Source: an uncultured Spirochaetota bacterium (GTDB lineage Bacteria; Spirochaetota; B62-G9; DRHN01). Taken from it: DNA of 64,000 bases. The notes under the pieces were generated by a model. That model made no database searches. It had not been told where the DNA came from and saw only the letters and a program-made list of their open reading frames with translations. The position numbers were made by a program, and so were the translations under genes. This document shows, in pieces, positions 4,610 through 55,180 of the stretch. Location of the stretch: the NCBI GenBank assembly GCA_964460545.1, contig CAYWUT010000003.1, forward strand, positions 1,271-65,270, in the 5' to 3' direction. The stretch's first letter is position 1; the number at the start of each line of letters is the position of its first letter.

Positions 4610-4633
4610 TTTTCGTCCTCCGGTTTATGTCGT

Positions 4634-6222: not shown

Positions 6223-6235
6223 AAATGGTTTTTAT

Positions 6236-7789: not shown

Positions 7790-8019
7790 GGTCCTCTCCG
7801 GTTATGGTATAATGTTCATTGCGCCGTTATGTCGGCTCTTGTTAGGAGCGGCACGTATACTCTTGATCTTTCGTTAAAGTCCGAATAGACGCGTGCCTCA
7901 TGGTTTTACCGTAATTTATCAATGATAAAGATAATGACGAAATATTAAACCGCTGGATCGATAAATTAAATTTCAGTATAAAATATCGGATACTCCACAC
8001 TCTGCTCGAAAACAGGAAA

Positions 8020-9063: not shown

Positions 9064-9104
9064 CCTCCTTTGCGATTTTTTACGGTTGAAAATGATGAAC
9101 CCGG

Positions 9105-10805
9105 TTACGCCGGCGCGGGATTCTCTTTCCCGGCCCCTTCGACAGTAAGGCCGCTTCCGGTCAGCTCTCCATAGTTCAGGAGAAAGGAAAAAGTGGAGGT
9201 GAAGAGAAATGTCTCGACAACGGCTTCGATGATTTTTTTATTGTCCATCTTTTTCACGCCGTCGATTTTTTCATTGAAGGTGAGCCGTTCATCGGGGTTC
9301 AGCAGGAGCCGCCTGGATTCCTTGTAATCATCGATTACGGTGGAAAGAATCTGACTCGTCGTTTTCATGATATCGGCGGTCCTTTTTCGAGAGCTCCTGC
9401 TCAGCAGGGCCCTCTTCTTTTGGATGGAATCAAGCATGGATGACTTCTGATTAATCGTAAGTCTCGGGTTGTTTTCGGTTTTTCTCATCTCCTGCATTCG
9501 CTCGATGTAATCCGTGACCTCATGCCGCGCTTCACTCAACATTGAATATGCACGGCCCAGGTCCTCCTTGATGTCTATCTTCTTCTGCTCCCTGTATTCG
9601 ACATTGAATTCGATTTTACCGGTCGTCAGTATAAATGAATATTCCCTGTCGAAGACGTCAAGAAGCAGCGCGGTTTTATACATCTTGTCCGTACGGTCAA
9701 TCGGCTTGAGCGGGTCTTTTTCATCCATACCCCGTGTTTTCTCATACCGCTCAATGGCTTCGTTTAAAATGGGGAGGCCCCTCTGAACGTGACGGGGTAT
9801 CTTTACGTCCTCGGACTGTATTGCGCCGGGGGTCTGCTCTTTTTGCAGATACTCCTTCATTTTTTTAAGCTGTTCCAACCGTCGCTTCTTCTCCTCCCTC
9901 GTTATAGAGCCAATTCTGTCCAGCTCCGTCATGCCTATGAAATCGTCGAGCTTCTGTGTATAGAGGGGGAGGTAATCACCGGCGAGCCTGCAGATGACGA
10001 TGTGCAGTTTGTTTAGAAAGTCGATAAGTATGAGGTCGATGTACTCCCGCAACTCGTTATAGACCGCTTCGGCGTTCGTCTCCTTCATCCTGCCTTTTTT
10101 GTCCTGTATCTCGGCGGCTTTCCGTATCGAGAGCTTGCACAGCTCTTTGAATTGACCGAGAACGTATATCTTCCTGAACAGGTTCTTGAAAGGGTCCATG
10201 TGATCTCCGGTCGGGAGTGCTTTACGGGCCAGGGCTTTTTCTATCTGAGCAAATTCCTTCTCATTGTAGAGTGCGTGAAGACGGAATATGAGCTCATAGA
10301 GCGGTAACTCCTTCTTCGAGTGCTGTATGAGGTCCTTTTTAATGGAACCCGCACCCTTGATAAATGAACCCGCGCCTGATTTGAGCCTGATGAAGTCGGT
10401 TTTTATTATGCCCTTCAGCAGAGCGATGAATTTATCGGAGACTCCGCCGCTTAAGGTCAGGGTCTTGAGGACCATTCCCTTCATATTTACCTTGAGTACG
10501 GCAAAGGGCTTCTTCTTCTTTTTCGGGGTCTTGGAGACACTCTTCGGCGTCGGTTTTCCACCCGCGGGTCTTTTAGACGGCTCTCCTTCCTTCGAGCGTG
10601 CGGACGGCCCGGGGCCCCCGGCCGTTCGTGCCGGTTTTCTCCGGTCTTCAGGAGGCAGCGGGGGGGTGTCTTCCCTGGACTTGGGTTTTTGTTTTACCAC
10701 TTCTCCGCCGGAGTCCACGAATTTCTTGAAGAGCTGGTCCCTCTGCGATTCATCGAGCTTGTCGATGCCCACCCTGTCCCGTACATGATCGAAATCAGAA
10801 GCCAT
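9105..10805 (-). CDS. Hypothetical protein with a basic, disordered Lys/Pro-rich N-terminus
   Basis: 566-aa ORF with protein-like composition; N-terminal ~110 aa are K/P/R-rich (TPKKKKKP); I recognise no domain. Confidence 0.5.
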   Translation of the reverse strand: MASDFDHVRDRVGIDKLDESQRDQLFKKFVDSGGEVVKQKPKSREDTPPLPPEDRRKPARTAGGPGPSARSKEGEPSKRPAGGKPTPKSVSKTPKKKKKPFAVLKVNMKGMVLKTLTLSGGVSDKFIALLKGIIKTDFIRLKSGAGSFIKGAGSIKKDLIQHSKKELPLYELIFRLHALYNEKEFAQIEKALARKALPTGDHMDPFKNLFRKIYVLGQFKELCKLSIRKAAEIQDKKGRMKETNAEAVYNELREYIDLILIDFLNKLHIVICRLAGDYLPLYTQKLDDFIGMTELDRIGSITREEKKRRLEQLKKMKEYLQKEQTPGAIQSEDVKIPRHVQRGLPILNEAIERYEKTRGMDEKDPLKPIDRTDKMYKTALLLDVFDREYSFILTTGKIEFNVEYREQKKIDIKEDLGRAYSMLSEARHEVTDYIERMQEMRKTENNPRLTINQKSSMLDSIQKKRALLSRSSRKRTADIMKTTSQILSTVIDDYKESRRLLLNPDERLTFNEKIDGVKKMDNKKIIEAVVETFLFTSTFSFLLNYGELTGSGLTVEGAGKENPAPA

Positions 10806-10907
10806 ATATACGCGTCCGTGGTCGTGGATTATTCAGTGCCTTGTGAATACCAAAAATCTCAATAGATAACACTTTTATGTCGAAAAATAATTTGAACGGA
10901 TTGCCCA

Positions 10908-12047
10908 ATGAAAAACACCATTTTCTTCGAAAGCCGAGGGGTTGAAGTACCCGTTAAAAAGAAAACAATTAACCGTATTCCCAGGGCCCTCTCCTCCCAA
11001 TATGTTACTCCAAAGAAGAAGATCAGTAAACAGCCGGATGAAGCCGTTTCCCATCACTCTAATGATACACTATTTCGTAAAATATTCAAAATAAAGAAAG
11101 GGAGGTTTATCCTCCTCGGAAGTTTCGCGGCTTTCTGTATTTTTTTACCCGTCTATACGAATATTCAGTCATATATCTGGGAAAAGACGCGTGTATTGAG
11201 CGTTGAAGGGATCGTCCTGTACGACCTTTTCCTTACGGAGAGAAGAGCACCCCTCTACTCCGCGTATTCGTCCGGAGAGGGAACGGCTGAGAATACGGGC
11301 AGTGGATTCGTGCTGCCGTCATTCAAGCTCATGCCCTACAAGGTGAAGAAGGGAGACTCGCTCTTCAGTATATCGCATCGATTCAACGTGTCCCTCGACA
11401 CTATTTTGACGGCGAACGAGCTTACGGATGCGTACCATCTCCAGATCGGCTCCACGCTTCAAATCCCGAGCTCGAGCGGTATTTTTTATACGGTCAAAAG
11501 GGGAGACAGCCTGTCCTCGATCATCGGGCGCTACGGCGGCAGTCTGAACGATATCGCGGATGTAAACGACCTGGAAAGCGCAACCATTCGAGTCGGGCAG
11601 ATACTTTTTGTCCCCGGAGGAAAACTTACGGAGTGGGAGCGGGCCGAGGCACTCGGTACGCTCTTCAAATACCCCACGAGCGGAAGGCTTACATCGAGGA
11701 TGGGTTTCCGGAAAGACCCGTTTACCGGACGAAAAGTCTATCATTCCGGAATCGATCTGGCCAATAAGAGCGGGACGGGAGTTTACGCTTCCCAGTACGG
11801 AAGGGTGACCTATGCGGGATACAAGGGCAATTACGGAAAGATGGTCGAGATCGTGCATCCGAACGGGTATTCCACGCTGTACGCTCATCTGAGCAGGGTG
11901 GTCGTCAAGCGCGGTCAGGCGGTGCGTCAGGGAGAGGAAATCGGGCTCATGGGAAATACCGGAAGGTCGACCGGCCCCCATCTTCACTTCGAAGTCCATC
12001 AGAACAAGAAACTCCTCGATCCGCTGAAGGTATTGAGCAGCCGTTAG
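10908..12047 (+). CDS. LysM-domain M23 family metallopeptidase
   Basis: A TM segment, two LysM-like repeats (YKVKKGDSLFSIS..., YTVKRGDSLSSII...) and the M23 catalytic motifs (HSGIDLA...; GNTGRSTGPHLHFEV). Confidence 0.85.
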   Translation: MKNTIFFESRGVEVPVKKKTINRIPRALSSQYVTPKKKISKQPDEAVSHHSNDTLFRKIFKIKKGRFILLGSFAAFCIFLPVYTNIQSYIWEKTRVLSVEGIVLYDLFLTERRAPLYSAYSSGEGTAENTGSGFVLPSFKLMPYKVKKGDSLFSISHRFNVSLDTILTANELTDAYHLQIGSTLQIPSSSGIFYTVKRGDSLSSIIGRYGGSLNDIADVNDLESATIRVGQILFVPGGKLTEWERAEALGTLFKYPTSGRLTSRMGFRKDPFTGRKVYHSGIDLANKSGTGVYASQYGRVTYAGYKGNYGKMVEIVHPNGYSTLYAHLSRVVVKRGQAVRQGEEIGLMGNTGRSTGPHLHFEVHQNKKLLDPLKVLSSR

Positions 12048-17465: not shown

Positions 17466-19373
17466 TCACGCTCCGGCGGACGCCTCGAGCTGGTCTATTA
17501 TCTTCTGAATCCTCTCCCTGTCCGGATAGTCCGGTGCAAGAACCAGGAGCGTCTTGAAAATGGTCAAAGCTTCGTTCTTTTTCCCCTGTGTAAGAAACAG
17601 GTTTCCGAGCGGCTCATAGGCCGGTATGAAGTTCTTGTCCGTTTTTATCGTTCTGAGATACTCCGTTATCGCCTCGGAGTTCCTGCTTAGGCGCAGGTAC
17701 GCGGTTGCGAGCCCGTAATGGGCGTCCGGGTAGAGGGGATCTAATTCCAGGGCCTTCTTGAACTGCTCCTCGGCCTCAGAGTAGAGCTCGGTCTTGAGCA
17801 GGGCGTTTCCCAGGTTGATACGTGCCGCCAGGGAATTCGGGTTGAGGGATATGGCCTTGCGAAGCGTTGAAAGCGCCTTGTCATAGAGGTTGCTCTTAAT
17901 GTAAATATCGCTGATATTGTTGTACGCCTCCATGTACCGCGGGTCGTACTCGATGGCCTTCTCGTACGCGGTTATGGCATCACTGTACTTTTTTATCTTC
18001 GCGTAGTTGTTACCCAGGTTGTAGTAGTAGCGTTTGTCCGTGGGCTTCAGGGAAATGGCACGTTTGAGCGCTTCAACCGCCTCGTTGTACTTGCCCTCCA
18101 TCTCGTAGAGTATGGAGAGATTGTAATAGGTAAGGTCGTTTTCAGGGTCCTGTTCCAGCACGCGCTCATACTCCGTCCTGGCCGCGCTGAAATTCCCCTT
18201 TGCCCTGTACGCGTCCCCGAGCTTGATGCGCGCGCTGAGGTTATTCGAATCGTGCGAGAGCGCTTTCATGTAATTGTCGATCGCGCGGTCATGGAATCCG
18301 TTTTCATAGTAGATGAGCCCGAGGTTTATGTAGGCCTTGACATAGTCCGGCTTGAGCCTGATTGCCATGTCATAGGCCTTTGTCGCGATGTTGCTCTTTC
18401 CGAGTTTCTGGGCGCTCAATCCCTGGTTGTAGGAAGCCTGCGGGTTATCGGGCATGAGTCTGACCGCCTTGGTGAACGAGCTCAGGGCTTCCTCGTATTC
18501 TCTGCGCAGGTACTGAATTATACCGAGCTTGTAGTAGGCCATTCCGTTGTTCGGATCGAGCTCCAGGGTTTTCTTGTATTCCTCGACCGCGCTCGGGTAG
18601 AGCTCCTGACGGTCGTACACCTGTCCGAGCGTGAAGTGCGGAAGGGGGAGCGTCGAATCCCTCTGAAGCGCCTTTTTGCTGTACTCTATCGCCTTCCTGG
18701 TGTTCTCCTGTGACGTGTTCTCCTCGAAATAGGCGGCACCGAGGTAGGCGAGGGTGCGCGCGTCGTCTGTCTTGAACTTGATGGATTCCTCCAAAGACAT
18801 GATCGCATCGGTAAATTTTCCCGAATCGTACAGGTCTTTACCCTGCTTGAAGAGCTTCGCGGCTTCGGCCTCGCGGGCCTGCTTCTCCTTTTCGAGATCG
18901 ACCGGTTCGGGCTCCTTTTTAGGCTCCTCTTTTGGAAGGGAATCCTTGATCGTCGTCGCGATCTTGTCCAGCTCTTCCTGCTGGCGCCTCTCCTCTCTTT
19001 TTGCCTCTTCCTTCTTCCCCTGAATGATTATATCGAGCAGGCTCCGCGCCTCGATGTTCTGCGGGTCTCGAATGAGGATCTGTTCGATCCGGCCGCGGGC
19101 GAGATCATGTTCCCCCTTGTCGAGATAATAGCGGGCGAGCTGCATCATATTCTCGATTTCGGCGGCCTTCAATTTATCCTCGTCCGCCTCTTTCCCGGTT
19201 TCCTCGGCAAGGGGCTGTTCGATTATGTCGGAAACCTCGGCAGGTCCCGGCGCGATCGTCTCTTCCCGGCCTTTGCCGGCCCGGTCTTGACCGGCCCTTA
19301 ACAGGAAGAAAGCGGCGCCTGCTGCAACCAGAACCGCGACTGCTGCTATGAGAAGCACCCTTCGGTCTATCAT
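17466..19373 (-). CDS. TPR-repeat protein with an N-terminal membrane anchor and a charged coiled linker
   Basis: An N-terminal TM segment (LLIAAVAVLVAAGAAFFLL) followed by many 34-aa TPR units (AYYNLG..., AYINLG..., etc.). Confidence 0.8.
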   Translation of the reverse strand: MIDRRVLLIAAVAVLVAAGAAFFLLRAGQDRAGKGREETIAPGPAEVSDIIEQPLAEETGKEADEDKLKAAEIENMMQLARYYLDKGEHDLARGRIEQILIRDPQNIEARSLLDIIIQGKKEEAKREERRQQEELDKIATTIKDSLPKEEPKKEPEPVDLEKEKQAREAEAAKLFKQGKDLYDSGKFTDAIMSLEESIKFKTDDARTLAYLGAAYFEENTSQENTRKAIEYSKKALQRDSTLPLPHFTLGQVYDRQELYPSAVEEYKKTLELDPNNGMAYYKLGIIQYLRREYEEALSSFTKAVRLMPDNPQASYNQGLSAQKLGKSNIATKAYDMAIRLKPDYVKAYINLGLIYYENGFHDRAIDNYMKALSHDSNNLSARIKLGDAYRAKGNFSAARTEYERVLEQDPENDLTYYNLSILYEMEGKYNEAVEALKRAISLKPTDKRYYYNLGNNYAKIKKYSDAITAYEKAIEYDPRYMEAYNNISDIYIKSNLYDKALSTLRKAISLNPNSLAARINLGNALLKTELYSEAEEQFKKALELDPLYPDAHYGLATAYLRLSRNSEAITEYLRTIKTDKNFIPAYEPLGNLFLTQGKKNEALTIFKTLLVLAPDYPDRERIQKIIDQLEASAGA

Positions 19374-41976: not shown

Positions 41977-42160
41977 ATGAGTGGAAAGAGCGGGTTGCCG
42001 CAGAAGATAATCGACCTGATCCCGGAGCACAAGACCTCTGTGAGTTGCACTTGCATTTTTATCAGGTAATGATCGAAAATTTTCCCTGAGAGGACTGCCT
42101 GTCACAATACGACAAACCGGAAACCTTATTCTACCTCGACCCTCCCTTTTACATAAAATA
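41977..42160 (+). pseudogene. Decayed D12-class (Dam-like) N6-adenine DNA methyltransferase
   Basis: Fragment 1 reads MSGKSGLPQKIIDLIPEHKT...*, matching the GGK..LLP.I..LIP N-terminal motif. Fragment 2, in another frame, reads YDKPETLFYLDPPFYIK*, carrying motif IV (DPPY/F). The fragments are interrupted by stops and frame changes inside a ~40% GC tract. Confidence 0.4.
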
Positions 42161-42428
42161 AACCCTGCTCTTTTCAAGGGTGACCGAAGATCATACCGCC
42201 CTGAGAGCGGTACCGCGTACTGCACGAGTAACCTACTCGACAGTATTACTTCCGTTGAGGCACGTGTAGCAAGAAAAAAATAATTTATAAAACACTTTTA
42301 AAGATGACGGCTGAACAACTTCGCAAGAGCACCTTAGAATATTTGTATTTGCCATTGAAACCGGATTTACATTAGTAAATGATTTATATATATTCTAATT
42401 AAAATTATTATAGATCTAAGCGATATCA

Positions 42429-43166
42429 GTGCGGAGTAATACAATGCTCGGGAATATGAACTTTCTTCACATGATACCAGATTATTTAATAATCAGGTTA
42501 CTCTTTGCCAGTGTATTGGGTGCATTAATAGGAATTGAACGAGATTTTCATGGAAGATCAGCAGGTCTGAGAACCAATCTCCTTGTTAGTTTAGGTGCCG
42601 CAGTATTCATGATTGTTTCTGAAATGATCCCAACTTCGTATTTATCAGGTTATGATAGCAATTCAATACTTCGATCCGATCCTAGTAGGATAGCAGCAAA
42701 TATCATAACAGGAATAGGCTTTTTAGGTGCTGGAGTGATTATTAAATCAGGTTTTTCAGTTAAGGGCATGACAACAGCAGCTTGTTTATGGCTATCAGCA
42801 GGTATAGGAATAAGTGCCGGAGCCGGATTCTATGAAATTGCACTCATTACTACAATAATTGGACTGATAAGTCTGATCCTTCTAAATCCTTTAGAGAAAG
42901 TATATGCGAAGGATTCCTACAGATCACTCCAGATCGTAACGTCAAACGATACAGATTTAGGGCGAATAATTTCAATTATTAAACGTGAAGGGCTGAAAAT
43001 ATTATACCTGGATAAAGAAAGAAATTATGAGACGGATAAAATGAAAATAATTTTTACTCTACGATTGCACTATAAAGGAGCTACAGATAAATTATCACAC
43101 GTTATAGTACAGGATATAGAAAGGTCGGGTATTGATGTTTATAAGATTAGATGGTTCCATCAATAG
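42429..43166 (+). CDS. mgtC: MgtC/SapB family membrane protein
   Basis: MgtC N-terminal signature (RLLFASVLGALIGIERDFHGRSAGLRTN). The gene is markedly AT-rich compared with its flanks. Confidence 0.85.
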   Translation: MRSNTMLGNMNFLHMIPDYLIIRLLFASVLGALIGIERDFHGRSAGLRTNLLVSLGAAVFMIVSEMIPTSYLSGYDSNSILRSDPSRIAANIITGIGFLGAGVIIKSGFSVKGMTTAACLWLSAGIGISAGAGFYEIALITTIIGLISLILLNPLEKVYAKDSYRSLQIVTSNDTDLGRIISIIKREGLKILYLDKERNYETDKMKIIFTLRLHYKGATDKLSHVIVQDIERSGIDVYKIRWFHQ

Positions 43167-43503
43167 CACATGATTTTCAACTGTTTCTTATTAATGATAA
43201 TTTCCTAATACGCACATTTTTTCTTCACATTTGTTCCTCATAAATATTCTTCACAAATGTTTTTTGATTTAACAGACCACCTACCCGTATCCTTGTAGTA
43301 ATCCATGCCGCACAAACTGCACAAGCCCTGTTCTTTCGATGATTTCCGGATATCCGACATCGGACAATGTGACGCTGGGATCGAATACCACGTCAGTGAA
43401 GCCGCCGCATGCCCGGCATGAAATACCTGTAGACCTCAGCTTCTTTTTAAACTAGATTCCTGTTGTACCAGGCGTTCCATTCTCCACCAACACGGGAGAG
43501 GTT

Positions 43504-44535
43504 ATGATATCGGACGAGCAGCTGCGCAAGGTCGGTTTTTTCACCATGGTTCTGGTTTCGAGCGTTTTCATCGTACAGATACTCAGGACCCTGAAGGGGG
43601 TGTTCCTGCCCCTGGTCATAGCAATATTCCTCGCCTATCTCCTGTCGCCTCCCATCGAGTTCTTCGCCCGGTACAAGGTGCCGCGTGTGGTTACGCTCAT
43701 CGTACTCGTCGTCATCCTCTGCTTCGCGGGCTATTTCGGGGTACAGGTCCTCATTCTCAACGTGAGCACCCTCACCGAGCGGCTGCCCGAGCTGAGAGGA
43801 CAATTCCTCAACACGGTCGGTCCTGTTCTCGCGCGCATAAGCGCCCTGGCGCCCGAACGAATGTTAGAGATTATACAGTCGTCGGGAGTTACAAAATTCG
43901 CAAGGAGCTTCTTTCAAAAGTCCTTCTCCATACTGGGAATGGTTCTTCTCACCCTCCTCATACTCGTATTCATCGGCTCCACCTATTCGAGGTATCCCCG
44001 GATCCTCAGGAAGGCGTTGAGCGGCAAGGGAGGGGACGACGTCATCAAGCTCGTCAAGCGGATCAACGGGCAGATCGTCCAGTACGTGCTCGTGAAATCG
44101 TTCGTCAGCGTGGGCACGGGTGTGCTGACCGGGCTCGCTTGCTTCCTGCTCGGCATAGAGTTCGCCCTCCTGTGGGGATTTTTGACCTTCCTGTTCAATT
44201 TCATACCCTACGTGGGGTCCCTTGTGGCCGTGCTGTTTCCCATCGGACTCGCGATCCTCCAGTTCCAGCAGCCCCTCATACCTCTGGTGGCACTCGTGAT
44301 TCTCGTTCCCATTCAGGTCGTTATGGGCAGCATTCTCGAGCCCTATTTAATGGGAAACCGGTTCAACCTGTCGCCGATCGTGATCCTCGTGTCCCTGTTC
44401 TTCTGGTCCTACGTGTGGGGACTGGCGGGGGCCTTTCTGGCCGTTCCGCTCACGGCCATCATCAGAACTGTTTTCATGAATATCGAGTCCCTGCGCCCGG
44501 TTGCCCAGCTCATCAGCAGGACCGGTGATAATTAA
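43504..44535 (+). CDS. AI-2E family transporter (PerM/UPF0118)
   Basis: A 343-aa product with 8 TM helices and the conserved LLWGFLTFLFNFIPYVGS block. Confidence 0.85.
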   Translation: MISDEQLRKVGFFTMVLVSSVFIVQILRTLKGVFLPLVIAIFLAYLLSPPIEFFARYKVPRVVTLIVLVVILCFAGYFGVQVLILNVSTLTERLPELRGQFLNTVGPVLARISALAPERMLEIIQSSGVTKFARSFFQKSFSILGMVLLTLLILVFIGSTYSRYPRILRKALSGKGGDDVIKLVKRINGQIVQYVLVKSFVSVGTGVLTGLACFLLGIEFALLWGFLTFLFNFIPYVGSLVAVLFPIGLAILQFQQPLIPLVALVILVPIQVVMGSILEPYLMGNRFNLSPIVILVSLFFWSYVWGLAGAFLAVPLTAIIRTVFMNIESLRPVAQLISRTGDN

Positions 44536-44915: not shown

Positions 44916-47039
44916 ATGAGAAAAACGATCGTACAAGAATGCGGAACATGCCCGCGAGTAGTGAAAGGGGCATTTTTATTCACGGTGTTTATGATCCTGG
45001 GAGGATTGACTCTCATATTACTGCCCCGTTCCGCACTGGCCCAGGACGAACACGGCCTGAGTATACAGTCACATGCTTCCATCGTGCCAGCCTCCATACC
45101 GGTGGGAACGAGCGGGGTCGGTATAACGCGGCTGCAGTTTCGAAGCGGGGACAACGACGATACCACGAGCATATCGCATATAGAGATTACGCTTACCGGC
45201 ACTTTGAGCGACTCAGACGACATCGCGGCCGTCAATGTCTATTTCGAGGACAGCGGCGGCAACCTTCTTTTCGACAACGGCACTGTCGATGATGTGGATG
45301 CCGTATTAGGAGGAGGTCCCGTCACATTCGGTGGCGGCACAACTCTCGATATAGACCTGGATCCGAATACCGTGGCGTTCGGCTGGGGCGGGTCCAGATA
45401 TCTCTACATTGTCTTCGATTTCGCGTCTGACGCCAATTCAGCAGAAACCGTGGGGTGTGTGATCACGAAGGTTACCTACGGTGCGCAGTTCACCGGTACG
45501 GGCGGACCGGGCTCCCCTGCAGTCCCACCCGCTCATTCCGGGACCGGCAATGTGGACGATTACGAGGTAACCCTGACGGCGACCGGCATCGCGCCCGCAG
45601 AGGCGGCCCAGGGCGATGAGAACGTGGAAATTCTCAAGCTGGTATTCACCGCCGTGGACGGAAGCGTTACTGCGAATATCGATTCGATAGAGCTCCGACG
45701 TGCAGGTACCGGAACCGACGGCGATGTGGCGGCTTCCGGTGTGACACTCTATGATGATACGGGGGACACTTCCGGGAGTTATGACAGCGGAGATACGGCG
45801 ATCGGCGGGGGATCGGGTTCACTGAGCGGGGGGTATGTGTTATTGAATCCCACGTCGAACCTCCAGGTGGCCTCGGCGGGCAAAACCTTTTTCGTAACGG
45901 TAAATATCGCGGCTACGGCGGCAGTTACAAAAACCGTGGGAATTGATGTTGAGGATCCGTCGAGCGACGTGGTTTTCGTCGATGTTGAAACAGACCCCGA
46001 TATCACAACACAGTATACCCAGAAGGGTTTCATTACCTCTTCATCCGCAACTCCGGAAAGCGGGAACACCGTCGCCATCGAGGAAATTGTAACCGAGGAT
46101 GTTACTCCGCCTACCGTTACTTTTACCGATCCGGCGGACGGGGAGACGGATGTACTTATTACAAAGGATATCGATCTCATCTTTTCCGAGGACATGGACG
46201 CGTCTACGGTAAATACCAGCAGCTTTCTCCTCAAGGACAGCCTGAACAGCGCTGTTTCAGGTACCGTGAATATCTCGGGATCGAACGCCACATTTGTTCC
46301 GACTTCGAATCTTGAATATCAGGAGACCTATACGGCAATGGTTACGACCGCAGTGCAGGACCTGGCGGGGAATCCGATGGCAGAGAATTATACGTGGAGC
46401 TTTACAGTACAGGACCCTCCGCTTCCACCGGCAGTCACCTTTACCGATCCTGTAGACGAAGAGCGTAACGTGCCCACTGCCACGGATATAGATGTCATAT
46501 TCTCAAAGGACATGGACGCGTCTACGGTAAATACCAGCAGCTTTCTCCTCAGGGACAGCCTGGACAACGCCGTCTCGGGCACGGTGTCCGTTTCCGGAAG
46601 GAACGCGACCTTTACACCCCTGTCAACCCTCGCGTATGAAACCACGTATATCGTGACTATTAACACGGATGCGCTGGACCTGGATGGGTATTCACTGACT
46701 GAAGACTACGTGTGGAGCTTTACGACCATCGAATACGTGCCCGAGCCCATTGCCGCGAACAACCGGATTCTTCCCGGATCGACCGATCCCGTCAAGATCT
46801 ACATACCCGAACCTCCGGGCGGACCGGATGAAAGAGTGACGGTACAGATCTTCACCGTTACGGGAGAGAGAATCGCGACGCTGGTAAATAATACTCCCTA
46901 CAGTCAGATAGTGAGTTCTCTTCCACTGCTCTGGTACGGGAAGAATCAGCGGCAGAAAAACCTGGGCCCGGGCCTGTACTTTATTCAGATAAGGACATCG
47001 AGTTACAAGAGGGTTCTCAAAGTATTGATCGTTCGGTGA
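44916..47039 (+). CDS. Secreted Ig-like (SbsA/Big_5-type) tandem-repeat protein with a T9SS-type C-terminal sorting domain
   Basis: A signal peptide, then a Thr/Gly/Asp-rich region. Two ~105-aa Ig-like repeats follow (TFTDPADGETDV... and TFTDPVDEERNV...). The C-terminal ~80 aa (VTVQIFTVTGERIATLV...GPGLYFIQIRTSSYKRVLKVLIVR*) fit the Por_Secre_tail pattern; FlgD-Ig is the alternative. Confidence 0.7.
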   Translation: MRKTIVQECGTCPRVVKGAFLFTVFMILGGLTLILLPRSALAQDEHGLSIQSHASIVPASIPVGTSGVGITRLQFRSGDNDDTTSISHIEITLTGTLSDSDDIAAVNVYFEDSGGNLLFDNGTVDDVDAVLGGGPVTFGGGTTLDIDLDPNTVAFGWGGSRYLYIVFDFASDANSAETVGCVITKVTYGAQFTGTGGPGSPAVPPAHSGTGNVDDYEVTLTATGIAPAEAAQGDENVEILKLVFTAVDGSVTANIDSIELRRAGTGTDGDVAASGVTLYDDTGDTSGSYDSGDTAIGGGSGSLSGGYVLLNPTSNLQVASAGKTFFVTVNIAATAAVTKTVGIDVEDPSSDVVFVDVETDPDITTQYTQKGFITSSSATPESGNTVAIEEIVTEDVTPPTVTFTDPADGETDVLITKDIDLIFSEDMDASTVNTSSFLLKDSLNSAVSGTVNISGSNATFVPTSNLEYQETYTAMVTTAVQDLAGNPMAENYTWSFTVQDPPLPPAVTFTDPVDEERNVPTATDIDVIFSKDMDASTVNTSSFLLRDSLDNAVSGTVSVSGRNATFTPLSTLAYETTYIVTINTDALDLDGYSLTEDYVWSFTTIEYVPEPIAANNRILPGSTDPVKIYIPEPPGGPDERVTVQIFTVTGERIATLVNNTPYSQIVSSLPLLWYGKNQRQKNLGPGLYFIQIRTSSYKRVLKVLIVR

Positions 47040-47060
47040 CATTTATTCGAGGGAATTTAT

Positions 47061-49502
47061 ATGCGTAGAATCAGCGACGGAATTTTATTTAAAATCATAC
47101 TTATAATGCCGGTTCTTTTCATCGCGTACGCCGCAGCGCCTTTCGGTGCTTCAGGGGCGGAGCAGGGGGGGGTGACGGGAGCGGAGTTTCTGAATGTACC
47201 ACCGACCTCTAGGTATAACGCGATGGGAGGAGTGATGGACGGACTGGGATCGGACCTCGAGGGGATACATTACAATCCCGCGCTGCTCTCGACACTCCCG
47301 GGACTGGGTCTTTCGCTCAATATCAACCCTTATCCGAACGAAGTTTCTCACGACCAACTGACCGTGGGCCTTCCGATATTCGGCGGTGTAGGAGCCGCCT
47401 CCGCACAGCTGTTTAATACCGGAGGTTTCACCTATATAAACGAAGATCTCCAGCCTGAAGAAACGGTAAGCGTATACGATGCGGCCGTATCGCTGGGGTA
47501 TTCCCGCTTTGTATGGAAATCACTATCCGTGGGCGCGACTGCGAAGGTGATTCACCGTACGCTGGGCGAGTACCATGCAAACGCGCTCGGTGCCGATATA
47601 GGAGGGGCCTACTGGTTCGAAACTCCCCATTTCGGAAAACGGCCCAAGCCTCCGACCGACAGGCAGCTCGATAAGGAGATTGAAAACAGCGAGAAGAAGC
47701 TCTCCGATGAGCGGCATAAGCGGATCAAAGAGGCGACAAAGGAGGTGGAGGAGCTCAAGGACCGCATCTCGGGCCTGGAAAAGGAGCGGAAGGACGTATC
47801 GGCCAAGATCGCGGAGGCCGAGGATGAAAAAAAAGCACCGCTCCTCGAAAAACAGCAGAAGATCGATGACGCGCTCTCCTCTAACCGTGAGAGACTGAAA
47901 GAGGAGGAGGAAAAAGCACAGGGAACACTTGGAGCGATTGAAGAGTGGTACGAAAAGGCCCTGCAGGAGGTTCGTGATGACCATAATGAAAAGTTATCGG
48001 ATTTGAAAGGGGTGGAACTGGAACGAGCACGGCTCTATGACGTGATCGCTGACCCGAAGCGGGAGCTGACTGAAGACGATATTAATTATTCGGTCGATGA
48101 AACCATTGAAAAGACCGTTGCTTTTCTTGAGGACCGTAAGAGAGAACTGGGTGAAGTTCGGACTCTTTATATTGAGAGGCGGAAAAGACGCATTAATGAG
48201 ATGCAAAATGATAGTGCCGCTTATAGAGAAATGATCGAATCGGAGTTCGGACCTGAATTGAAGAGATTGAATGAAGAGCTTGAATCCCTGAATGCGGAAA
48301 AGCAGTCCCTGGAAGGGAGAGGGGATGCGGTCGAGAAAACGGAGCTTCAGGAAGCACAAAAGCGCGTGAGCGCGAAGGAGAAAGAAATCCAGGCTCTTCA
48401 AAACGACCCGTGGCTGAAGCGTCTGGAGAGCAGGATCGAGGTCAAGGAAGAGCAGATCGAAGAAACCGGGGAAGATATCACAAAGATGGAGGAGGAAACG
48501 GAAAAGTCGATGGGTGCGGTCGAGCAGAGGGTAGAGAGAGACATAGAGACCTTCAATACCCTCCGAACCTGGCTCATTCGCGAGCTGAAAAAGGCGAAGC
48601 TCAGGAGAGAGCTCGATCTTCTGAAATCGCGAAATGATAAACAGAAAGAGAAGGCTGTTCAGGACTACAGGAACAAAGAGGAGAGCCTGTACCTCAGGCT
48701 TTTATCCATGAAGTTCAAACATGAGGAAAAAATCCTGGAGTCCAAGGACTATGCCCTCAAATCGGACTTTGACAGCCGAACGTATGATATAAGAACGGGG
48801 TTGGAGAAGGAGCTGGAGAGACTGGAGGACGATCGGGCCTTCAAGGAGCGTTTCATCTACGGACAGATAGCCGAGATCGAAAAGGACCTCGAAACAGCCG
48901 GACCTGAAGGTTCTGAAGACGGAGAGGGGCGGATCGAGGCTCTGAAAGCGGAATTGGAGGAGATGGAAGAGACCGTTAAGAGGGAAACCGCGCGGCTGAA
49001 GGGCATTGCGAAAAAATCGCTGGCTGAAGAGCAGGCTGATTATGAGGTCGAACGTTCGGACCTGAAATGGCGGATGAAAACGACCCGGCTCGTTTACCTG
49101 CAGAGCGATACACCCTACCTCAATACATCGGTGCATTTCTCCGTCCAGAACTTCGGAACACAGGTCAAATTCGTCGAGGAGGGCTACCCGCTGCCCACCA
49201 CGTTCAATATCGGGGCCGGATACGCGGTCCTGAATACGGACCTCCACGCGGTCAAGCTCGGCGTACAGGCCCGTCTTCCGGTTTACAACAAGGCAACGCT
49301 GGGAATCGGAGCGGAATACGGATTTCTCAACACGCTTTTTCTGAGAACAGGCTACACCTTCGGCGCCCTGAACCGGAAGTTTTCCGCGGGCATGGGAGCA
49401 CGGGTTACCATGGGCTTCACGGAGTATTCAGTGGATTATACGTTTCAACCGATCCCTGACTACGGCATTGTCCATAGTTTCGGTGTGTCCGCCTATTTCT
49501 AG
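47061..49502 (+). CDS. FadL/PorV-like outer-membrane beta-barrel protein with a ~470-aa coiled-coil insertion
   Basis: A signal peptide. An N-terminal barrel segment (RYNAMGGVMDGLGSDLEGIHYNPALL). Residues ~200-670 are E/K/R-rich with a heptad periodicity. The C-terminal ~140 aa show an amphipathic beta pattern and end in Phe (VSAYF*). Confidence 0.65.
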   Translation: MRRISDGILFKIILIMPVLFIAYAAAPFGASGAEQGGVTGAEFLNVPPTSRYNAMGGVMDGLGSDLEGIHYNPALLSTLPGLGLSLNINPYPNEVSHDQLTVGLPIFGGVGAASAQLFNTGGFTYINEDLQPEETVSVYDAAVSLGYSRFVWKSLSVGATAKVIHRTLGEYHANALGADIGGAYWFETPHFGKRPKPPTDRQLDKEIENSEKKLSDERHKRIKEATKEVEELKDRISGLEKERKDVSAKIAEAEDEKKAPLLEKQQKIDDALSSNRERLKEEEEKAQGTLGAIEEWYEKALQEVRDDHNEKLSDLKGVELERARLYDVIADPKRELTEDDINYSVDETIEKTVAFLEDRKRELGEVRTLYIERRKRRINEMQNDSAAYREMIESEFGPELKRLNEELESLNAEKQSLEGRGDAVEKTELQEAQKRVSAKEKEIQALQNDPWLKRLESRIEVKEEQIEETGEDITKMEEETEKSMGAVEQRVERDIETFNTLRTWLIRELKKAKLRRELDLLKSRNDKQKEKAVQDYRNKEESLYLRLLSMKFKHEEKILESKDYALKSDFDSRTYDIRTGLEKELERLEDDRAFKERFIYGQIAEIEKDLETAGPEGSEDGEGRIEALKAELEEMEETVKRETARLKGIAKKSLAEEQADYEVERSDLKWRMKTTRLVYLQSDTPYLNTSVHFSVQNFGTQVKFVEEGYPLPTTFNIGAGYAVLNTDLHAVKLGVQARLPVYNKATLGIGAEYGFLNTLFLRTGYTFGALNRKFSAGMGARVTMGFTEYSVDYTFQPIPDYGIVHSFGVSAYF

Positions 49503-49647: not shown

Positions 49648-51951
49648 TTACGGGTTGGTATTAAAGCGCACTGCTTCATCCTCCAGACGGAAAACATCGG
49701 CGACCCTGCGGGGATAGTAAAACGCCTGGCTTCCCGTCGCATTTTCCACACCCTGCGTGTAATAGTCGCCCGCCGCGGTGGCTCCCTTTTCCAGGTTGGC
49801 GGTATGGATTTCTATCAGGTTGCTCGTCTCATAGAGTATGAGCTGCGCGGTAACGGTGCCGTAACCATAGCGGGTGGAAACCCTGTCGAAATTGACGATC
49901 AGCCTCCTGTTGGGAGCCGATCCTCTCGTCTCCCAGGAAATCGTTCCTCCCTGGGCGACGTCCAGCCTTCTCCAGTCGATGGCTATCATATTGTCATAGG
50001 CGTCGTCGAGGGGAATGGATTTCCCGAATCCGGAGCTGCCTCCGCCGAAGGCCAGATCGAAGGTGATCATGCAGTAAGACGAAATTTTAAACTGCGTGTA
50101 TGAGGTCCCGAAAAAGGTGAAGGTGAACCCGATATCGAGCGCGTCGGTTACGGATCCTGACCCGGTAAGCGCGGAGGTCACGTCGTTGTCGAAGGGTCCG
50201 GATGCGGGATTAAAAGCGATGCCTGACGCTCCGATCGTTCCGGACGTAGCCGACGCCTCGGTCGAAGGCGCGCTCTCCCCGATTTCGTTGACAGCCGTGA
50301 CGACGCAGTAGATGGTGGTGCCGGGAGAAGCCGGAAAAGAGTAGAAGGTGGAAGTGATGTCCGAGATAAGGTTGCCGGTTGACGGAGTTACGCCGGAGGA
50401 GGTGGACCAGTACAGATTGTACGATTCAGCCGTAAAGGAGTCGCTCCAGCCCATCAGAACGCACTGGTTTCCCGCCAGTGCCTGCAGACCCTTGGGTGAT
50501 GCGGGCTCGAACGCTGGAGGCCTTTTATCCGCGGGGATCATCACCAGCCCGCCCAGCTTGTTTCCCGTCCTCCCGACGAGTTCTGCTTCCGGCCCGGATT
50601 TATCGACCTTGACGAGATAGGTATAGGGCTCGTCCACGAGCAATCCGAAAATCTGCCCGTCGAAACGGGTCGTCATGCAGTTGATCCGCGAATAAACGGG
50701 AAACTGCGGGTCAATGTCCTGAAAATCGTCCAGATTCGGATAGTACAGATCTCCGACCGTGGTTTCCGCACCCGTATTGTCGTTGCGCGAGTAAAGCGTG
50801 ATCGTATCACCCCCGTCACCGTTGGCAATATACAGTGTGCCGTTCGGTCCGTACGTCATCCCGGCGCCCGTGCTTTACGAAACATCGTCATTCAGTATCA
50901 CTGGTGATGCAACATTATCGGGATCTATCCTGTAAAAGAAGGTGCTGTAGGATGTGAAGATTGATCCGTCGGACTCGCGTACTGCCATTCCGGGAAGCGC
51001 GTAAATCCTGGTACTTCCGAGCAGGGTTGCCTTGCCCGTTGAAAGATTGATGGTGTAAAGCGCTCCGTTTTCGGGTGCCGACCCGCCCGTGCCCCCGTAG
51101 AGCGTTCCGTTCGCGGAATTGTAGACCATGGAGGTCATAAAACCCACATTGGTTCCGGATACATTGGTATATATATCGAGGAGAGGAGAGGCCTCGCCCG
51201 TGATTTGATTGAGAAGAAAAAGATCGCCCAGACGACCGGTCGCCAACAGCAGCGGTGTGGTATCGACATTGACGGCTGAAACATCGTCGGGGTTGAAACT
51301 GCTGTATTGACTCCCGGCACCGGTCAGGGTTGTTGAAATCGTATAGGTCCTGTCACCGTCGTTCAGCATGTCGCCGACCCCGGTCACAGTCACTGTCTGA
51401 ACCGAGGACCAGTTGCCTGGGGTAAAGGTAAGCCTGGACGGACTTACCGTTCCTTCAGTCGTATCGCTGCTTACCAGGTCGATCACGACGTCGGTATCGG
51501 GCATCGTGTTCTAGACAACGGTGAAGGAGTCCTGTCCCTCGTCTTCCGTGGTAACCAGGATGCTCGGAGCGGTAACGGTGATCCCGGGTGTATCGTCATC
51601 GACAACGGTTATTGATACGTCCGCCACCTGTTCGGGTGTGAGGTCCGCGTAGTCCGTGGTATCAGTTGTGGAAGCGGCATTGACATCGACGGTAATACTG
51701 AAGCTCTGATTCCCGTCCGCGCTGTCGTCGTCCTGGCCGGTGATGATTACTGTTTGAGCGGTGCTCCAGTCGCCCGGTCCGAAAAGGAGGTCCAATGATT
51801 CCACCGGGCTCCTGCCCGGCAGTGTACGCTCTTCTTCATCCGAAGAGAGCAGGGCCTTGCCGATATCGGGACTCTCAATCCCGATCGCCACGGTTCCATC
51901 GGGCTCCGAGGCGAGCACCACGGAAAATGAGCCGGTGCCCCCCTTTTGCCT
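49648..51951 (-). pseudogene. Disrupted large surface/adhesin-like gene (FN3/Ig-like repeats); N-terminus missing and two in-frame stops
   Basis: A single reading frame is open from 51951 to 49651. It is interrupted by TAG (51511-51513) and TAA (50875-50877), so the three track ORFs are collinear. There is no start codon or signal peptide at the 5' end. FN3-like segment: YNLYWSTSSGVTPS. Confidence 0.6.
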
Positions 51952-53350: not shown

Positions 53351-55180
53351 ATGACGAATAAGAATGGAAACAACGATTCTCTGAGAAACATAGCGATTAT
53401 CGCGCATGTCGATCACGGAAAAACGACGCTCGTTGATGCGATGTTCAGGCAGAGCGGCCTGTTCAGAAAGGGACAGCAGGTCTCGGAGCGGCTGATGGAC
53501 AGCTTGGACCTTGAAAGGGAGCGGGGGATCACGATCGCGGCAAAGAACTGCTCGGTCATATGGAAGGGGGTCAGGATCAACATCATCGACACCCCGGGAC
53601 ATGCCGATTTCGGCGGCGAGGTGGAACGCGGGCTCTTCATGGCTGACGGGGCCCTGCTTCTGGTCGACGCATCCGAAGGGCCGCTTCCGCAGACGAGGTT
53701 CGTCCTTGAAAAGGCACTGCAGGCGAATCTCAAGATCATTGTGGTCATAAACAAGATCGACCGGCAGGACGCGCGCCCGGCACAGGTTCTGGACGAGATA
53801 TACGATCTTCTCATAGAACTCGGCGCGGACGAGGAACAGCTCGACTTTCCCCTGTTGTACGCGAACGGAAAGGCGGGTGTGGCCGCGGCTGCGCTCGATG
53901 AGGATGCGCGCGACCTTCACCTCCTCCTGGACACCATAGTGAAGGAGGTGCCCGCTCCCGATTATACGGCTGAAGGGCACTTCCAGATGCTGGTGGCGGA
54001 CCTCTCCTACTCCGATTATCTCGGCAGGCTGGCAATAGGAAAGGTCATGAACGGTAGGGTCCGGTCGAAGGAGGATCTCATCCGCATCGGAGAGGACGGA
54101 AGCCGTATCCCGCTCAATGTGTCAAAGCTGCAGGTATATGAAGGACCCTTCCTGAAGGAGACGGAGATGGCGGGACCGGGCGATATCGTCGTGGTCTCCG
54201 GTATCGACGACGTTCACATCGGCGATACTATCTGCACGAAGGGGGCTTTAAAGCCCCTGAAGCGTATATCCGTGGACGAGCCAACGGTGTCCATGCGGTT
54301 CAGTGCAAACAACTCTCCCATATCAGGCAGGGAGGGCGTTTACGTCCAGTCGAGCAGGATACGTGAGCGGCTCAGGAAGGAGGCCCTGAAGAACGTGTCC
54401 ATCATCGTGGAGGAGAACGATGACCGGGAGGGATTCACGGTAAAGGGGAGGGGTGAGTTTCAGCTCGTCATTCTTGTGGAGACCATGCGCAGGGAGGGTT
54501 TCGAGCTCTGCGTGGGCCGTCCAAAAGTCATATTCCGACACGAGAAGGGTAAGAAACTCGAACCCGTGGAACACCTGCTCGTGGAATGCGGTGAAGGTTT
54601 CACCGGAACGGTGACCGAAAAGCTCACTCGAAGAAAGGGACGGATGCTTGCGTTTTCGAACCAGGAAAACGGCCGTATCAGAATCGAGTTCAGCATTCCG
54701 TCCAGGGGCCTCATAGGATACCGGGATGAATTTCTCACGGACACGAAGGGCACGGGTATCATGTATTCGAATTTCTCTGGATACGAGGAATACAGGGGCG
54801 ATTTCCCGGACCGGTATACCGGCTCCCTTGTATCGGACAGGAACGGCGAGGCGGTTGCCTATGCTCTTTCAAACCTCGAAGCACGGGGCCGCATATTCAT
54901 CGTGCCCGGGGACCCGGTTTACGAGGGGATGATAATCGGAGGACACAGCAGGGAGAACGACCTCTTCGTCAACCCGTGCAGAACAAAGAAACTCACGAAC
55001 ATGCGGGCCGCAGGGAAGGACGATGCCGTTACCATCACGGCTGTTTCACCCATGACGCTCGAGAAGGCTGTCCAGTTCATCCGGGAGGACGAGCTGGTCG
55101 AGGTCACCCCGAAATCGATACGGCTGAGAAAGACCGTGCTCACGGCAGGGGAGAGAAAGGCCATGATTCGGGGCGCATAG
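53351..55180 (+). CDS. typA: Translational GTPase TypA/BipA
   Basis: [10 protein letters not shown] and DTPGHADF motifs, plus EF-G-like domains. 609 aa. Confidence 0.95.

Follow-up and report, generated by a model that had tools for sequence, protein, structure and literature searches.

A PorV/PorQ-family outer-membrane barrel with a conserved internal helical domain, encoded beside a putative type IX cargo protein in spirochaete-like genomes

The outer-membrane barrels PorV (F. johnsoniae, PDB 6H3I/8GL6 chain F) and PorQ are the type-A carriers and anchors of the T9SS (type IX secretion system). In the structure of the F. johnsoniae translocon, PorV Asn87 and Phe115 are located in extracellular loops that grip the C-terminal sorting domain (CTD) of the substrate (PMC10994853), and the loop between strands 3 and 4 (S3-S4) is the one that enters SprA. 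A second group of carriers, PorP/SprF, is encoded by genes that adjoin the gene of their own cargo. In the case of PorP-PorE-PG1035, the carrier anchors a non-mobile cargo at the cell surface, while PorE bridges the barrel to peptidoglycan (PMC9143113; PMC12618676). Finally, the 8-stranded PorG of the P. gingivalis T9SS contacts PorK via one long periplasmic loop, and this loop and a C-terminal extension reach the PorK ring (PMC12365241). Here we describe a barrel of the PorV/PorQ family which carries a helical domain of about 480 residues between its sixth and seventh strands, and which is encoded directly downstream of a CTD-bearing protein.

The window analysed here is a stretch of DNA of 64,000 nucleotides, and all features given below with coordinates are on its forward strand. 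The barrel gene occupies positions 47061..49502 and encodes 813 amino acids plus a stop codon, exactly as given in a preliminary description of this DNA. The NCBIfam model of the PorV/PorQ family, NF033709 (curated cut-off 90 bits), matches the protein with 139.5 bits (E 1.8e-40) in two stretches flanking an insert: residues 39-187 correspond to profile positions 2-161, and the C-terminal ~110 residues to positions 170-310. The preliminary description had proposed that the terminal segments are the two parts of one PorV-type barrel, and this was borne out in two ways. Each half taken alone matches NF033709 (E 1.3e-25 for the N-terminal half, 2.2e-15 for the C-terminal half), and the AF2 model of the full protein (pLDDT 85) contains a single 14-stranded FadL-type barrel, with six strands before the helical insert and eight after it. 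The protein is nevertheless an orthologue of neither PorV (NF033710, 52 bits versus at least 250 needed) nor PorQ (NF033711, 78.5 bits in the N-terminal half only, versus at least 220). No PorP-family model was present among the NCBIfam matches at E <= 1, placing it in a different barrel subfamily from PorP/SprF, and Toluene_X (PF03349; FadL/TodX) was not matched in the Pfam scan; the closest matches of the barrel, in sequence and in structure, are PorV/PorQ and not FadL. No Pfam family covers the whole protein or the insert, with only weak DUF5723 and Spectrin noise being returned. A precomputed PF28217 tag on one protein (P0015) was not reproduced.

The barrel shares with PorV and PorQ the N-terminal plug and the NPA motif. 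It starts with a signal-peptide-like segment without a lipobox Cys (MRRISDGILFKIILIMPVLFIAYAAAPFGASGA, residues ~1-33, 47061..47159), in line with the signal peptide proposed earlier; AF2 places a low-confidence helix at residues 2-30. The plug, or hatch (residues 37-82, 47169..47306), aligns with the N-terminal part of PorV from F. johnsoniae and is modelled as short helices at 42-78 that precede strand 1. Here the anticipated GxxxGxxxxxxxxYNPA-type motif takes the form G57-x3-G61-x9-Y71-N72-P73-A74, with N72 invariant among 71 family members. Strands S1-S6 (residues 83-186, 47307..47618, AF2 DSSP) include a long S3-S4 hairpin. In the S1-S2 link, N93 is invariant in the family and aligns to F. 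johnsoniae PorV N87, so that the Asn contacting the CTD lysine in PorV is kept; T120 aligns to PorV F115 (numbering checked). Strands S7-S14 (residues 689-813, 49125..49499), delimited by DSSP, alignment to the PorV strands and NF033709 positions 170-310, include L4, a conserved loop reading QNFGTQVKF...LP, as well as the terminal Phe noted earlier, the protein ending in ...GVSAYF.

The insert (residues 200-680, 47658..49100) is modelled by AF2 as seven helices with a net acidic charge. The preliminary description saw here a highly charged helical segment of ~470 residues with a continuous heptad repeat. The charge and the helicity stand: residues 191-675 are 47% D/E/K/R, and AF2 renders the whole insert as helix. 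The continuous heptad does not, since hydrophobic residues recur with a period of 3.6, not 3.5, the heptad register shifts every 30-80 residues, and no uninterrupted 3.5-residue register was found over the ~470 residues. The helices (200-252, 255-325, 338-419, 424-447, 450-522, 526-612 and 615-680 in AF2 DSSP) are interrupted by three reversals of direction, at 326-337, 420-423 and 523-525, and the helix breaks coincide with conserved Pro/Gly positions. The successive runs measure 126 residues out, 82 back, 99 out and 155 back, closing within 12 residues. When modelled in isolation, the insert gave a pLDDT of 87.6 and a pTM of 0.68. By arithmetic on the DSSP segments of a monomer model, the insert would fold back on itself into a rod of ~143 residues, or ~21 nm, and not extend to ~70 nm as a single long stalk.

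The points where the chain leaves and re-enters the barrel are strongly conserved. The outbound junction, E-T-P-H-x-G-x-x-P-K-P-P (residues 187-199, 47619..47657), is the top conserved stretch of the protein, with 81% mean identity across the family and invariant E187, T188, P189, H190, P195, K196 and P197; the return junction, Q-x-D-x-P-Y-x-N (residues 681-688, 49101..49124), has 70% mean identity and invariant Q681, P685, Y686 and N688. Within the insert, conserved turn motifs are found (ERxRLFxVIxDPxxELT, DPWxKRL and ELKKAKLKRELDLL), and conservation peaks at residues 501-520 (column value 0.83). This peak overlaps the putative distal tip of the rod, placed by the helix lengths at residues ~505-540 (...RELKKAKLRRELDLLKSRNDKQKEK..., 48573..48680). 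The tip is also the sole basic patch: averaged over the family, its net charge per 21 residues is +2.8 to +3.4, whereas the rest of the insert is mostly acidic to neutral. The insert had no fold match in the PDB, and Pfam and fold searches recognised no peptidoglycan-binding or other known domain in it. An internal duplication was considered and dropped, with hhalign probabilities of <= 70%. A profile search with the insert alone matched only this barrel family, indicating that relatives of the helical domain do not occur on their own or in other fusions.

The side of the membrane on which the rod emerges was read from strand counting and alignment to PorV. Both AF2 DSSP and the alignment place the insert after six strands and before eight. 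Asn87 of PorV belongs to the link between strands 1 and 2, and Phe115 sits at the apex of the hairpin of strands 3 and 4. Both of these connections are on the extracellular side in solved structures of PorV, so that the one between strands 6 and 7 should be periplasmic. F. johnsoniae PorV has a single large additional loop (~60 residues), which is at S9-S10, a position of extracellular parity. The orientation was anchored on N87 and F115 instead of on indels in 97 plain relatives; across these the indel pattern is too uniform to discriminate between the two orientations, and the S6-S7 link of plain relatives has only 2-5 residues. These data argue strongly that the insert replaces the S6-S7 turn, the third periplasmic turn, and that the rod is in the periplasm, contrary to the earlier view of a stalk projecting tens of nm from the cell surface.

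This architecture is not peculiar to the window. Orthologues with the same insertion, which the preliminary description had proposed to look for, form 34 protein clusters of ~800 residues sharing 38-99% identity, and the insert is 465-493 residues long in 33 of the 34, though identity falls to just 38%. At the DNA level, 43 loci representing 28 distinct versions, from many samples, have it, which rules out a chance arrangement, a mis-assembly or a gene fusion. Compared with 20 long representatives outside the clade, only this clade is internally split, at HMM position 180/181; all 20 have an intact barrel followed by a C-terminal tail of 53-591 residues. Among ten tails scanned, OmpA was found in five and SPOR in one, and some sister-barrel tails have charged coiled-coil spacers. 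A scan of genome contigs returned one distant relative only, from WOR-3. The host genomes appear to be those of free-living spirochaetes, two family members being labelled 'Spirochaetia bacterium'. As a separate observation, the named-organism relatives of the TypA encoded in the window are spirochaetes in 17 of 18 cases.

The gene immediately upstream (44916..47039, an open reading frame recognised by its Big_5 domains and synteny) encodes a protein of 707 residues that is secreted or located at the surface. Its N-terminus resembles a signal peptide and is followed by a variable N-domain, a pair of bacterial Ig-like Big_5 domains and a CTD. The Big_5 domains (residues ~395-600, 46098..46715) match Pfam PF13205 with E 2.9e-49 in two stretches, the best at residues 395-497. 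The CTD (residues 601-707, 46716..47036) matches the type-A sorting domain model TIGR04183 at residues 639-705 with a borderline 24.8 bits against a cut-off of 23, which agrees with the T9SS cargo-like neighbour proposed earlier; of six relatives of this protein that were scanned, one scored 31.1 and four scored 17.5-21.6, below the cut-off. The CTD is nonetheless the best-conserved region of the protein: identity to orthologues is 79/52/42%, versus 45/35/36% in the N-domain, and K702 and the ...VLKVLIVR end are invariant. A CTD-bearing orthologue lies immediately upstream of the barrel gene, on the same strand, in 22/22 distinct versions with upstream DNA, so that the specialised pair suggested in the preliminary description is strictly kept. 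The spacer between the two genes is 21 nt and contains a Shine-Dalgarno-like GAGGGA (47049..47054) 6 nt before the ATG. No terminator-like site above chance was detected between them, and a promoter and terminator scan likewise gave nothing above chance. As judged from this arrangement, the two genes are probably co-transcribed.

On balance, we consider it probable that 44916-47039 and 47061-49502 encode a conserved cargo-carrier pair of type IX kind, in which the rod would act as a periplasmic strut or handle. The Big_5 protein would be exported to the periplasm via its signal peptide, and its CTD would mediate the transfer across the outer membrane or onto it. Like PorV, PorQ and PorP/SprF with their own clients, the 14-stranded barrel would grip this domain by extracellular loops, and hold or deliver the Big_5 protein at the cell surface. 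Such binding is suggested by the invariance of N93, the equivalent of PorV N87, and by the adjacency of the CTD gene in all 22 informative versions. A gene with weak SprA/Sov similarity, which directly follows the barrel gene in 11/19 versions, hints at a link to a translocon. The rod with its conserved basic tip would be a built-in element linking the carrier, and via the carrier the surface protein, to a partner deep in the periplasm, such as the cell wall, the inner-membrane surface or a force-delivering machine. Points that weigh against this reading are the borderline CTD scores, the weakness of the SprA similarity and the lack of a SprA-like gene in the window, the finding of no T9SS motor, ring or sortase gene among 20 large open reading frames of the window, and a rod in which no known domain was recognised. 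We infer this tether or handle function in analogy to the separate PorE that serves PorP in Bacteroidota, and to the C-terminal OmpA/SPOR tails of the sister barrels. PorP-PorE-cargo complexes, with porP-like genes beside their cognate cargo (PMC9143113; PMC12618676), and the PorG-PorK contact (PMC12365241) constitute precedents.

A periplasmic rod might instead act in the secretion step, as a holdase or docking platform, as a plug or gate, or as a substitute for a Skp/SprE-like 'dish' under a SprA-like translocon. The F. johnsoniae translocon needs Plug and the periplasmic accessory proteins SprE, PorD and a Skp homologue (PMC10994853), long amphipathic helices with 3.6 periodicity are typical of chaperone arms, and a SprA-like gene lies directly downstream of the barrel gene in 11/19 versions, the window not being among them. 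These SprA-like proteins are 1,448-1,702 residues long, and three of eight members match the SprA/Sov model TIGR04189. The similarity is weak and limited to their N-terminal ~120 residues (best E 1.3e-19, 61.9 bits, model positions 141-256 only), far from the equivalog level of at least 200 bits for a model of ~2,300 residues, and they had no sequence match in the PDB. Docking of the barrel on a SprA/Sov lateral opening is hinted at by the gene adjacency in these 11 versions. In the 64-kb window, tblastn with the SprA-like proteins found nothing. The minus-strand gene downstream of the barrel gene was compared with them and is unrelated. The eight versions in which the rod is present but no SprA-like gene adjoins, the window included, speak against a role in secretion itself, as do the packing of the helices against each other in AF2 (pTM 0.68), unlike free arms, and the fixed insert length and conserved basic tip, which better suit a ruler or contact role. 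We therefore regard this alternative as unlikely.

Also improbable is a further reading, in which the cargo, the rod-bearing carrier and a short SprA-like barrel would form a self-contained T9SS-derived export module in spirochaetes, operating without GldKLMN/PorKLMN. The ~21-nm rod would then reach the inner-membrane side and be the part by which force or anchorage acts to pull the carrier-cargo complex off the translocon. If this three-gene module were true, a single polypeptide, the rod, would stand in for both the motor arm and the hub of the classical machinery.

Two further alternatives question the location or the fold of the rod, and we give each of them only a slim chance. One is that the insert belongs to a loop on the extracellular side and stands as a stalk on the surface beside the displayed Big_5 protein, for example as a spacer or an adhesin stalk. 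Long charged helical stalks are known in trimeric autotransporters, and our orientation comes from strand counting and alignment. Moreover, DSSP contains mini-strands at 702-704 and 707-709, which would flip the parity if counted as one transmembrane strand. However, this would give an odd barrel of 6+9 strands, and the 700-713 segment aligns to a charged PorV loop (PKISYDHDDLSANFLP) and not to a membrane strand; the six strands before the insert, with the S1-S2 and S3-S4 connections extracellular in PorV complexes, also argue against a surface stalk. A 480-residue, 47%-charged domain would, in addition, have to pass the outer membrane as a loop. The C-terminus of outer-membrane barrels is periplasmic, and all the sister-barrel appendages examined are C-terminal, most of those scanned carrying cell-wall-binding domains. 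The other alternative is that rods self-associate, with barrels forming dimers or arrays via intermolecular coiled coils and thereby organising a patch of the surface protein. The composition is coiled-coil-like, and the intramolecular packing in what is a monomer model may be a prediction artefact; by contrast, the near cancellation of the out-and-back helix lengths within one chain and the conserved turn motifs point to a defined intramolecular fold.

That the protein is simply a channel for small molecules of the FadL-like type, with a domain in the periplasm, unrelated to secretion and linked to its neighbour in some other way, is hardly credible: no T9SS is known from spirochaetes (PMC11285876), and transport of hydrophobic molecules has been proposed for a PorV/PorQ-family protein of Brachyspira, but the preference for PorV/PorQ over FadL and the lack of Toluene_X in Pfam, the 22/22 synteny with a protein whose CTD is its most conserved part, and the SprA-like neighbour in 11/19 versions all argue otherwise.

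The favoured pairing of a carrier with its own cargo and a built-in rod shares features with several known systems. It resembles PorV/PorQ in having a partner with a type-A-like CTD, but differs from them in the ~480-residue helical domain in periplasmic turn 3, in being genetically dedicated to one client, and in its presence in spirochaete-like genomes rather than in Bacteroidota. With PorP/SprF it has in common the carrier gene adjoining its own cargo gene, whereas the cargo CTD is type-A-like and not type B, and, unlike in PorP-PorE, the periplasmic element is part of the barrel chain itself, and no cell-wall-binding domain can be recognised in it. The C-tailed barrels (P0048, P0077, P0089, P0115, P0122 and P0157, and the WOR-3 locus L001, whose barrel gene likewise follows a giant CTD-bearing gene) belong to the same family branch and also have a periplasmic appendage; theirs comes after strand 14 and ends in OmpA/SPOR, while here it consists of helices only and is located between strands 6 and 7. 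PorG is a small-scale precedent of a periplasmic loop as an interface, with 11 residues versus ~480 here, in a barrel of another type without a client protein. TolC also combines a beta-barrel with long helices, which are periplasmic. However, TolC and the trimeric autotransporter adhesins are trimers with four strands per chain. The helices of TolC are a continuation of the barrel wall, and those of the adhesins make up an extracellular stalk at the N-terminus; Pfam and fold searches revealed no sequence or fold match between either and our single-chain 14-stranded barrel.

A PorV/PorQ barrel and a CTD cargo are known elements; what is new here is the large domain in a periplasmic turn, with the putative function given above. 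Our literature searches (PorV with coiled coil; T9SS in Spirochaetota) retrieved no description of this architecture and no PorV/PorQ-type carrier in which a periplasmic turn holds a large domain, in agreement with the preliminary description, which knew of no such family. To our knowledge, this holds for outer-membrane barrel families in general. The ~480-residue insert thus indicates that periplasmic turns of barrels can host whole domains, and a carrier with its own long periplasmic rod and conserved tip offers a defined handle for mutation, shortening and cross-linking. The T9SS is said to be confined to the Fibrobacterota-Chlorobiota-Bacteroidota group (PMC11285876). The genomes with the strictly conserved cargo and carrier cassette, which a SprA-like barrel gene often follows, have spirochaetes as their named relatives and thus fall outside that group. 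If this taxonomy holds, the cassette would point to a minimal version of the type IX export route, perhaps an ancestral or a transferred one, and would hint at what the PorV/FadL-like barrels of spirochaetes, as yet uncharacterised, may do.

The product of the barrel gene (ORF 47061..49502, + strand, 813 aa) scored 139.5 bits against NF033709, the NCBIfam model of the PorV/PorQ family, for which the curated cut-off is 90 bits. The match came in two stretches: residues 39-187 corresponded to profile positions 2-161, and the C-terminal ~110 residues to positions 170-310. Both halves also matched when the terminal segments were scanned alone against this model (E 1.3e-25 and 2.2e-15), and a Pfam scan of the whole protein gave no significant match. 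A signal-peptide-like N-terminus, a G-x3-G-x9-YNPA motif and a terminal Phe were recognised by eye. Charged residues make up 47% of the segment 191-675 (E 19%, K 12%, R 9%, D 7%), whose hydrophobic periodicity is 3.6 residues; that of the termini is of the 2-residue, beta-strand type. The full protein was modelled with AlphaFold2 on the family alignment (mean pLDDT 85.1), giving plug-like short helices (aa 42-78), six strands (aa 83-91, 95-106, 109-126, 132-152, 155-168 and 171-186), an insert of seven helices (aa 200-252, 255-325, 338-419, 424-447, 450-522, 526-612 and 615-680) and further strands from aa 689 to 812. In this predicted structure the N- and C-terminal segments are one barrel. 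The split barrel with a charged middle, proposed in the preliminary description, is thus confirmed by the two-stretch profile match, the model and the 34 clusters of relatives described below. The middle segment is helical, as had been claimed, but with a periodicity of 3.6 and seven helices it departs from a single unbroken heptad coiled coil.

Orthologues with the same insertion were found in a search of 5.8 billion proteins, which returned 34 clusters (748-906 aa, 38-99% identity) matching over the full length. In the family alignment the insert measures 465-493 aa in 33 of them and 582 aa in the remaining one. A further search, of 1.84 billion representatives with an HMM of the N-terminal half, placed the insert-bearing proteins in a tight group at E <= 1e-51, with one distant member (P0047, 831 aa, E 2.9e-27); below this group came thousands of plain PorV-family barrels of ~300-350 aa. 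In every member of the insert-bearing clade a barrel profile breaks at HMM position 180/181, leaving a gap of 493-561 aa inside it. A mis-assembly as the origin of the split is excluded by this shared split point and by the architecture conserved across relatives. Within its known family, the split barrel with a helical insert is an authentic, conserved variant, hitherto undescribed.

On which side of the membrane does the insert lie? A profile of 70 plain relatives and the barrel-only query aligned to PorV across the whole barrel (E 1.1e-47), and this alignment provided the strand map. S6 (aa 171-186, ...GADIGGAYWF) precedes the insert and S7 (aa 689-699, TSVHFSVQNFG) follows it. After S7 comes a conserved stretch, TQVKFVEEGYPLP, which is a loop and not a membrane strand, since its PorV counterpart, PKISYDHDDLSANFLP, is charged; S8 to S14 come after it, ending with the final Phe. 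Six strands therefore precede the insert and eight follow. The map was anchored on Asn87 and Phe115 of PorV, extracellular-loop positions that hold the substrate C-terminal sorting domain (CTD) in the F. johnsoniae translocon (PMC10994853); the PorV sequence recovered from the alignment has N at residue 87 and F at residue 115. In the window protein, the counterpart of N87 is N93, which sits in the S1-S2 link and is invariant across the family; that of F115 is T120, close to the S3-S4 hairpin tip. In PorV it is the S3-S4 loop that extends into SprA. As S1-S2 and S3-S4 are connected on the outer side, the turn from S6 to S7 would be periplasmic. In agreement with this, the single large extra loop of PorV (~60 aa) is at S9-S10, which has outside parity, and the S6-S7 link is merely 2-5 residues long in plain relatives. 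Strand count and alignment to PorV thus argue strongly that the insert would leave the barrel on the periplasmic side, and the extracellular stalk put forward in the preliminary description most probably points in the wrong direction.

The insert modelled alone (pLDDT 87.6, pTM 0.68) has its helices as in the full-length model. A PDB structure search with it gave no match (best E 0.26, TM <= 0.25), and we found no internal repeat, no Pfam family and no homologue outside its own protein family. For the path of the rod, breaks of 1-2 residues (253-254, 448-449 and 613-614) were taken as kinks, and the longer ones (326-337, 420-423 and 523-525) as reversals. The path then has legs of 126 residues (outward), 82 (back), 99 (outward) and 155 (back), closing within 12 residues of its start, as it must because the insert sits in a tight turn. 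From the model we infer that the rod would extend ~143 residues away from the barrel at its farthest point; with 0.148 nm per residue this makes ~21 nm. Conservation peaks at the junctions (ETPHxGxxPKPP, 81%, and QxDxPYxN, 70% identity), and further conserved motifs are the turn ERxRLFxVIxDPxxELT and DPWxKRL. The strongest peak (0.83) is at residues 501-520 (RELKKAKLKRELDLL). Residues 505-540 are the sole basic patch of the insert (+2.8 to +3.4 per 21 residues, the rest being mostly acidic to neutral), and fall at the inferred distal tip. Its constant length at just 38% identity and its conserved charged tip suggest a spacer that makes contact at its far end. Less probably, the insert might act as a periplasmic chaperone or plug, or mediate self-association.

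Upstream lies the putative partner (44916..47039, + strand, 707 aa), with two Big_5 domains and a C-terminal match to TIGR04183 of borderline score (24.8 vs the cut-off of 23). The 21-nt intergenic spacer contains a GAGGGA ribosome-binding site. An HMM of the last 107 partner residues was run against all 43 loci collected. In every locus with upstream DNA, a partner orthologue ends immediately 5' of the barrel gene on the same strand, in 22/22 distinct versions (<=95% identity; one locus, L009, was counted from its called genes). The specialised pairing with a neighbouring CTD protein suspected earlier therefore holds in all of these versions. Across the family, the partner's passenger part ranges in length between about 220 and 1,983 aa, and its CTD is the best-conserved region (79/52/42% identity vs 45/35/36% in the N-domain). 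That the barrel is instead a non-secretory FadL-like channel is improbable, given the PorV/PorQ match and this constant neighbour. Just upstream of the pair and of an AI-2E-family transporter gene (43504-44535), G+C is 0.42 (42001-44000), vs about 0.52-0.58 in most other parts.

Appendages were surveyed in the 150 best representatives, among which an internal one occurs only in the clade of the window protein. In all 20 long proteins outside it the barrel is intact and continues into a C-terminal tail of 53-591 aa, which would be periplasmic, as C-termini of outer-membrane barrels are. Ten tails were scanned: five end in OmpA and one in SPOR, one is CsgG/LpoB/TolB_N-like, one has fn3 and two have no Pfam match; in several tailed barrels charged coiled-coil spacers precede the wall-binding domain. 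Periplasmic appendages are thus a habit of this family branch. The PorV-family barrels closest to the clade include P0048, P0059, P0061, P0077, P0089, P0115, P0122 and P0157, many with periplasmic C-terminal tails (OmpA, SPOR, TPR, FecR, fn3 or CsgG/LpoB-like); several tailed ones also score above cut-off for the Treponema family UPF0164 (PF03687). Locus L001, from a WOR-3 MAG (JAGMCL010000119.1), encodes a repetitive protein of 3,274 aa, of surface type and ending in a CTD-like tail (5-9829), and, directly after it, a 500-aa PorV-family barrel extended at its C-terminus by a helical linker and an OmpA-like domain (9896-11398), which is a second kind of pair of cargo and carrier with periplasmic appendage.

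Two family members come from NCBI MAGs labelled 'Spirochaetia bacterium'. The window TypA (53351-55180) has 18 organism-named relatives at 68-72% identity, 17 of them spirochaetes (Spirochaetales, Spirochaetaceae, Alkalispirochaeta, Oceanispirochaeta and Marispirochaeta). Judged from these sequences, the source of the window seems to be an uncultured bacterium of the Spirochaetia, outside the phyla where parts of the T9SS (type IX secretion system) are expected. The T9SS is described as restricted to the FCB superphylum (PMC11285876); in the literature searched, the sole mention of T9SS-type components in spirochaetes was a Brachyspira protein annotated as PorV/PorQ family.

For 19 versions, 1 kb or more of DNA 3' of the barrel gene was available. 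Directly next to it on that side, 11 of them (all <=45% identical to the window protein) encode mutually homologous proteins of 1,448-1,702 aa ending in Phe (among others, L009 9582-14687, L010 9515-13876, L012 9582-13961 and L043 4443-8789). The SprA/Sov model TIGR04189 was matched by 3/8 of them (best E 1.3e-19), over just ~120 N-terminal residues and with a score far below cut-off, and a profile of this family had no PDB sequence match. The similarity to SprA is weak and N-terminal and the proteins are much shorter, so they may with caution be called SprA-like. Such a gene is absent from the window and other close relatives, and no T9SS motor or ring component was matched among the 20 large window ORFs scanned. 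The remaining content is housekeeping (hut operon, glnA, amtB, pyk, typA, ychF). A 635-aa TPR protein (17466-19373, - strand) matches the 'magnetosome protein MamA' model in five stretches (256.8 vs the curated cut-off of 200 bits), probably a repeated-TPR artefact and not a magnetosome gene. Downstream of the barrel gene, three ORFs (403, 209 and 136 aa; 49648-51921, - strand) make up a single 757-aa gene that encodes an unannotated, repeat-rich protein and is broken by two nonsense codons (TAG 51511-51513 and TAA 50875-50877). It is intact in L008, a contig 99.8% identical, and L007 carries the first stop only; within the population, the gene appears to be turning into a pseudogene.

Barrels of the PorV, PorQ and PorP/SprF types bind client CTDs at the surface. 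porP-like genes adjoin their cognate cargo genes, and PorE links PorP to peptidoglycan for non-mobile cargo (PMC9143113; PMC12618676). The step that needs energy comes when the carrier-substrate complex leaves SprA, and its drive acts from the periplasmic side (PMC10994853); the PorK ring is reached by PorG through one long periplasmic loop (PMC12365241). By analogy with these T9SS templates, the best-supported reading is that the window barrel would serve specifically to carry or anchor the Big_5 protein encoded upstream. Through its built-in periplasmic rod it would be tethered to, or might be engaged by, the cell wall, the surface of the inner membrane or a partner that delivers force.
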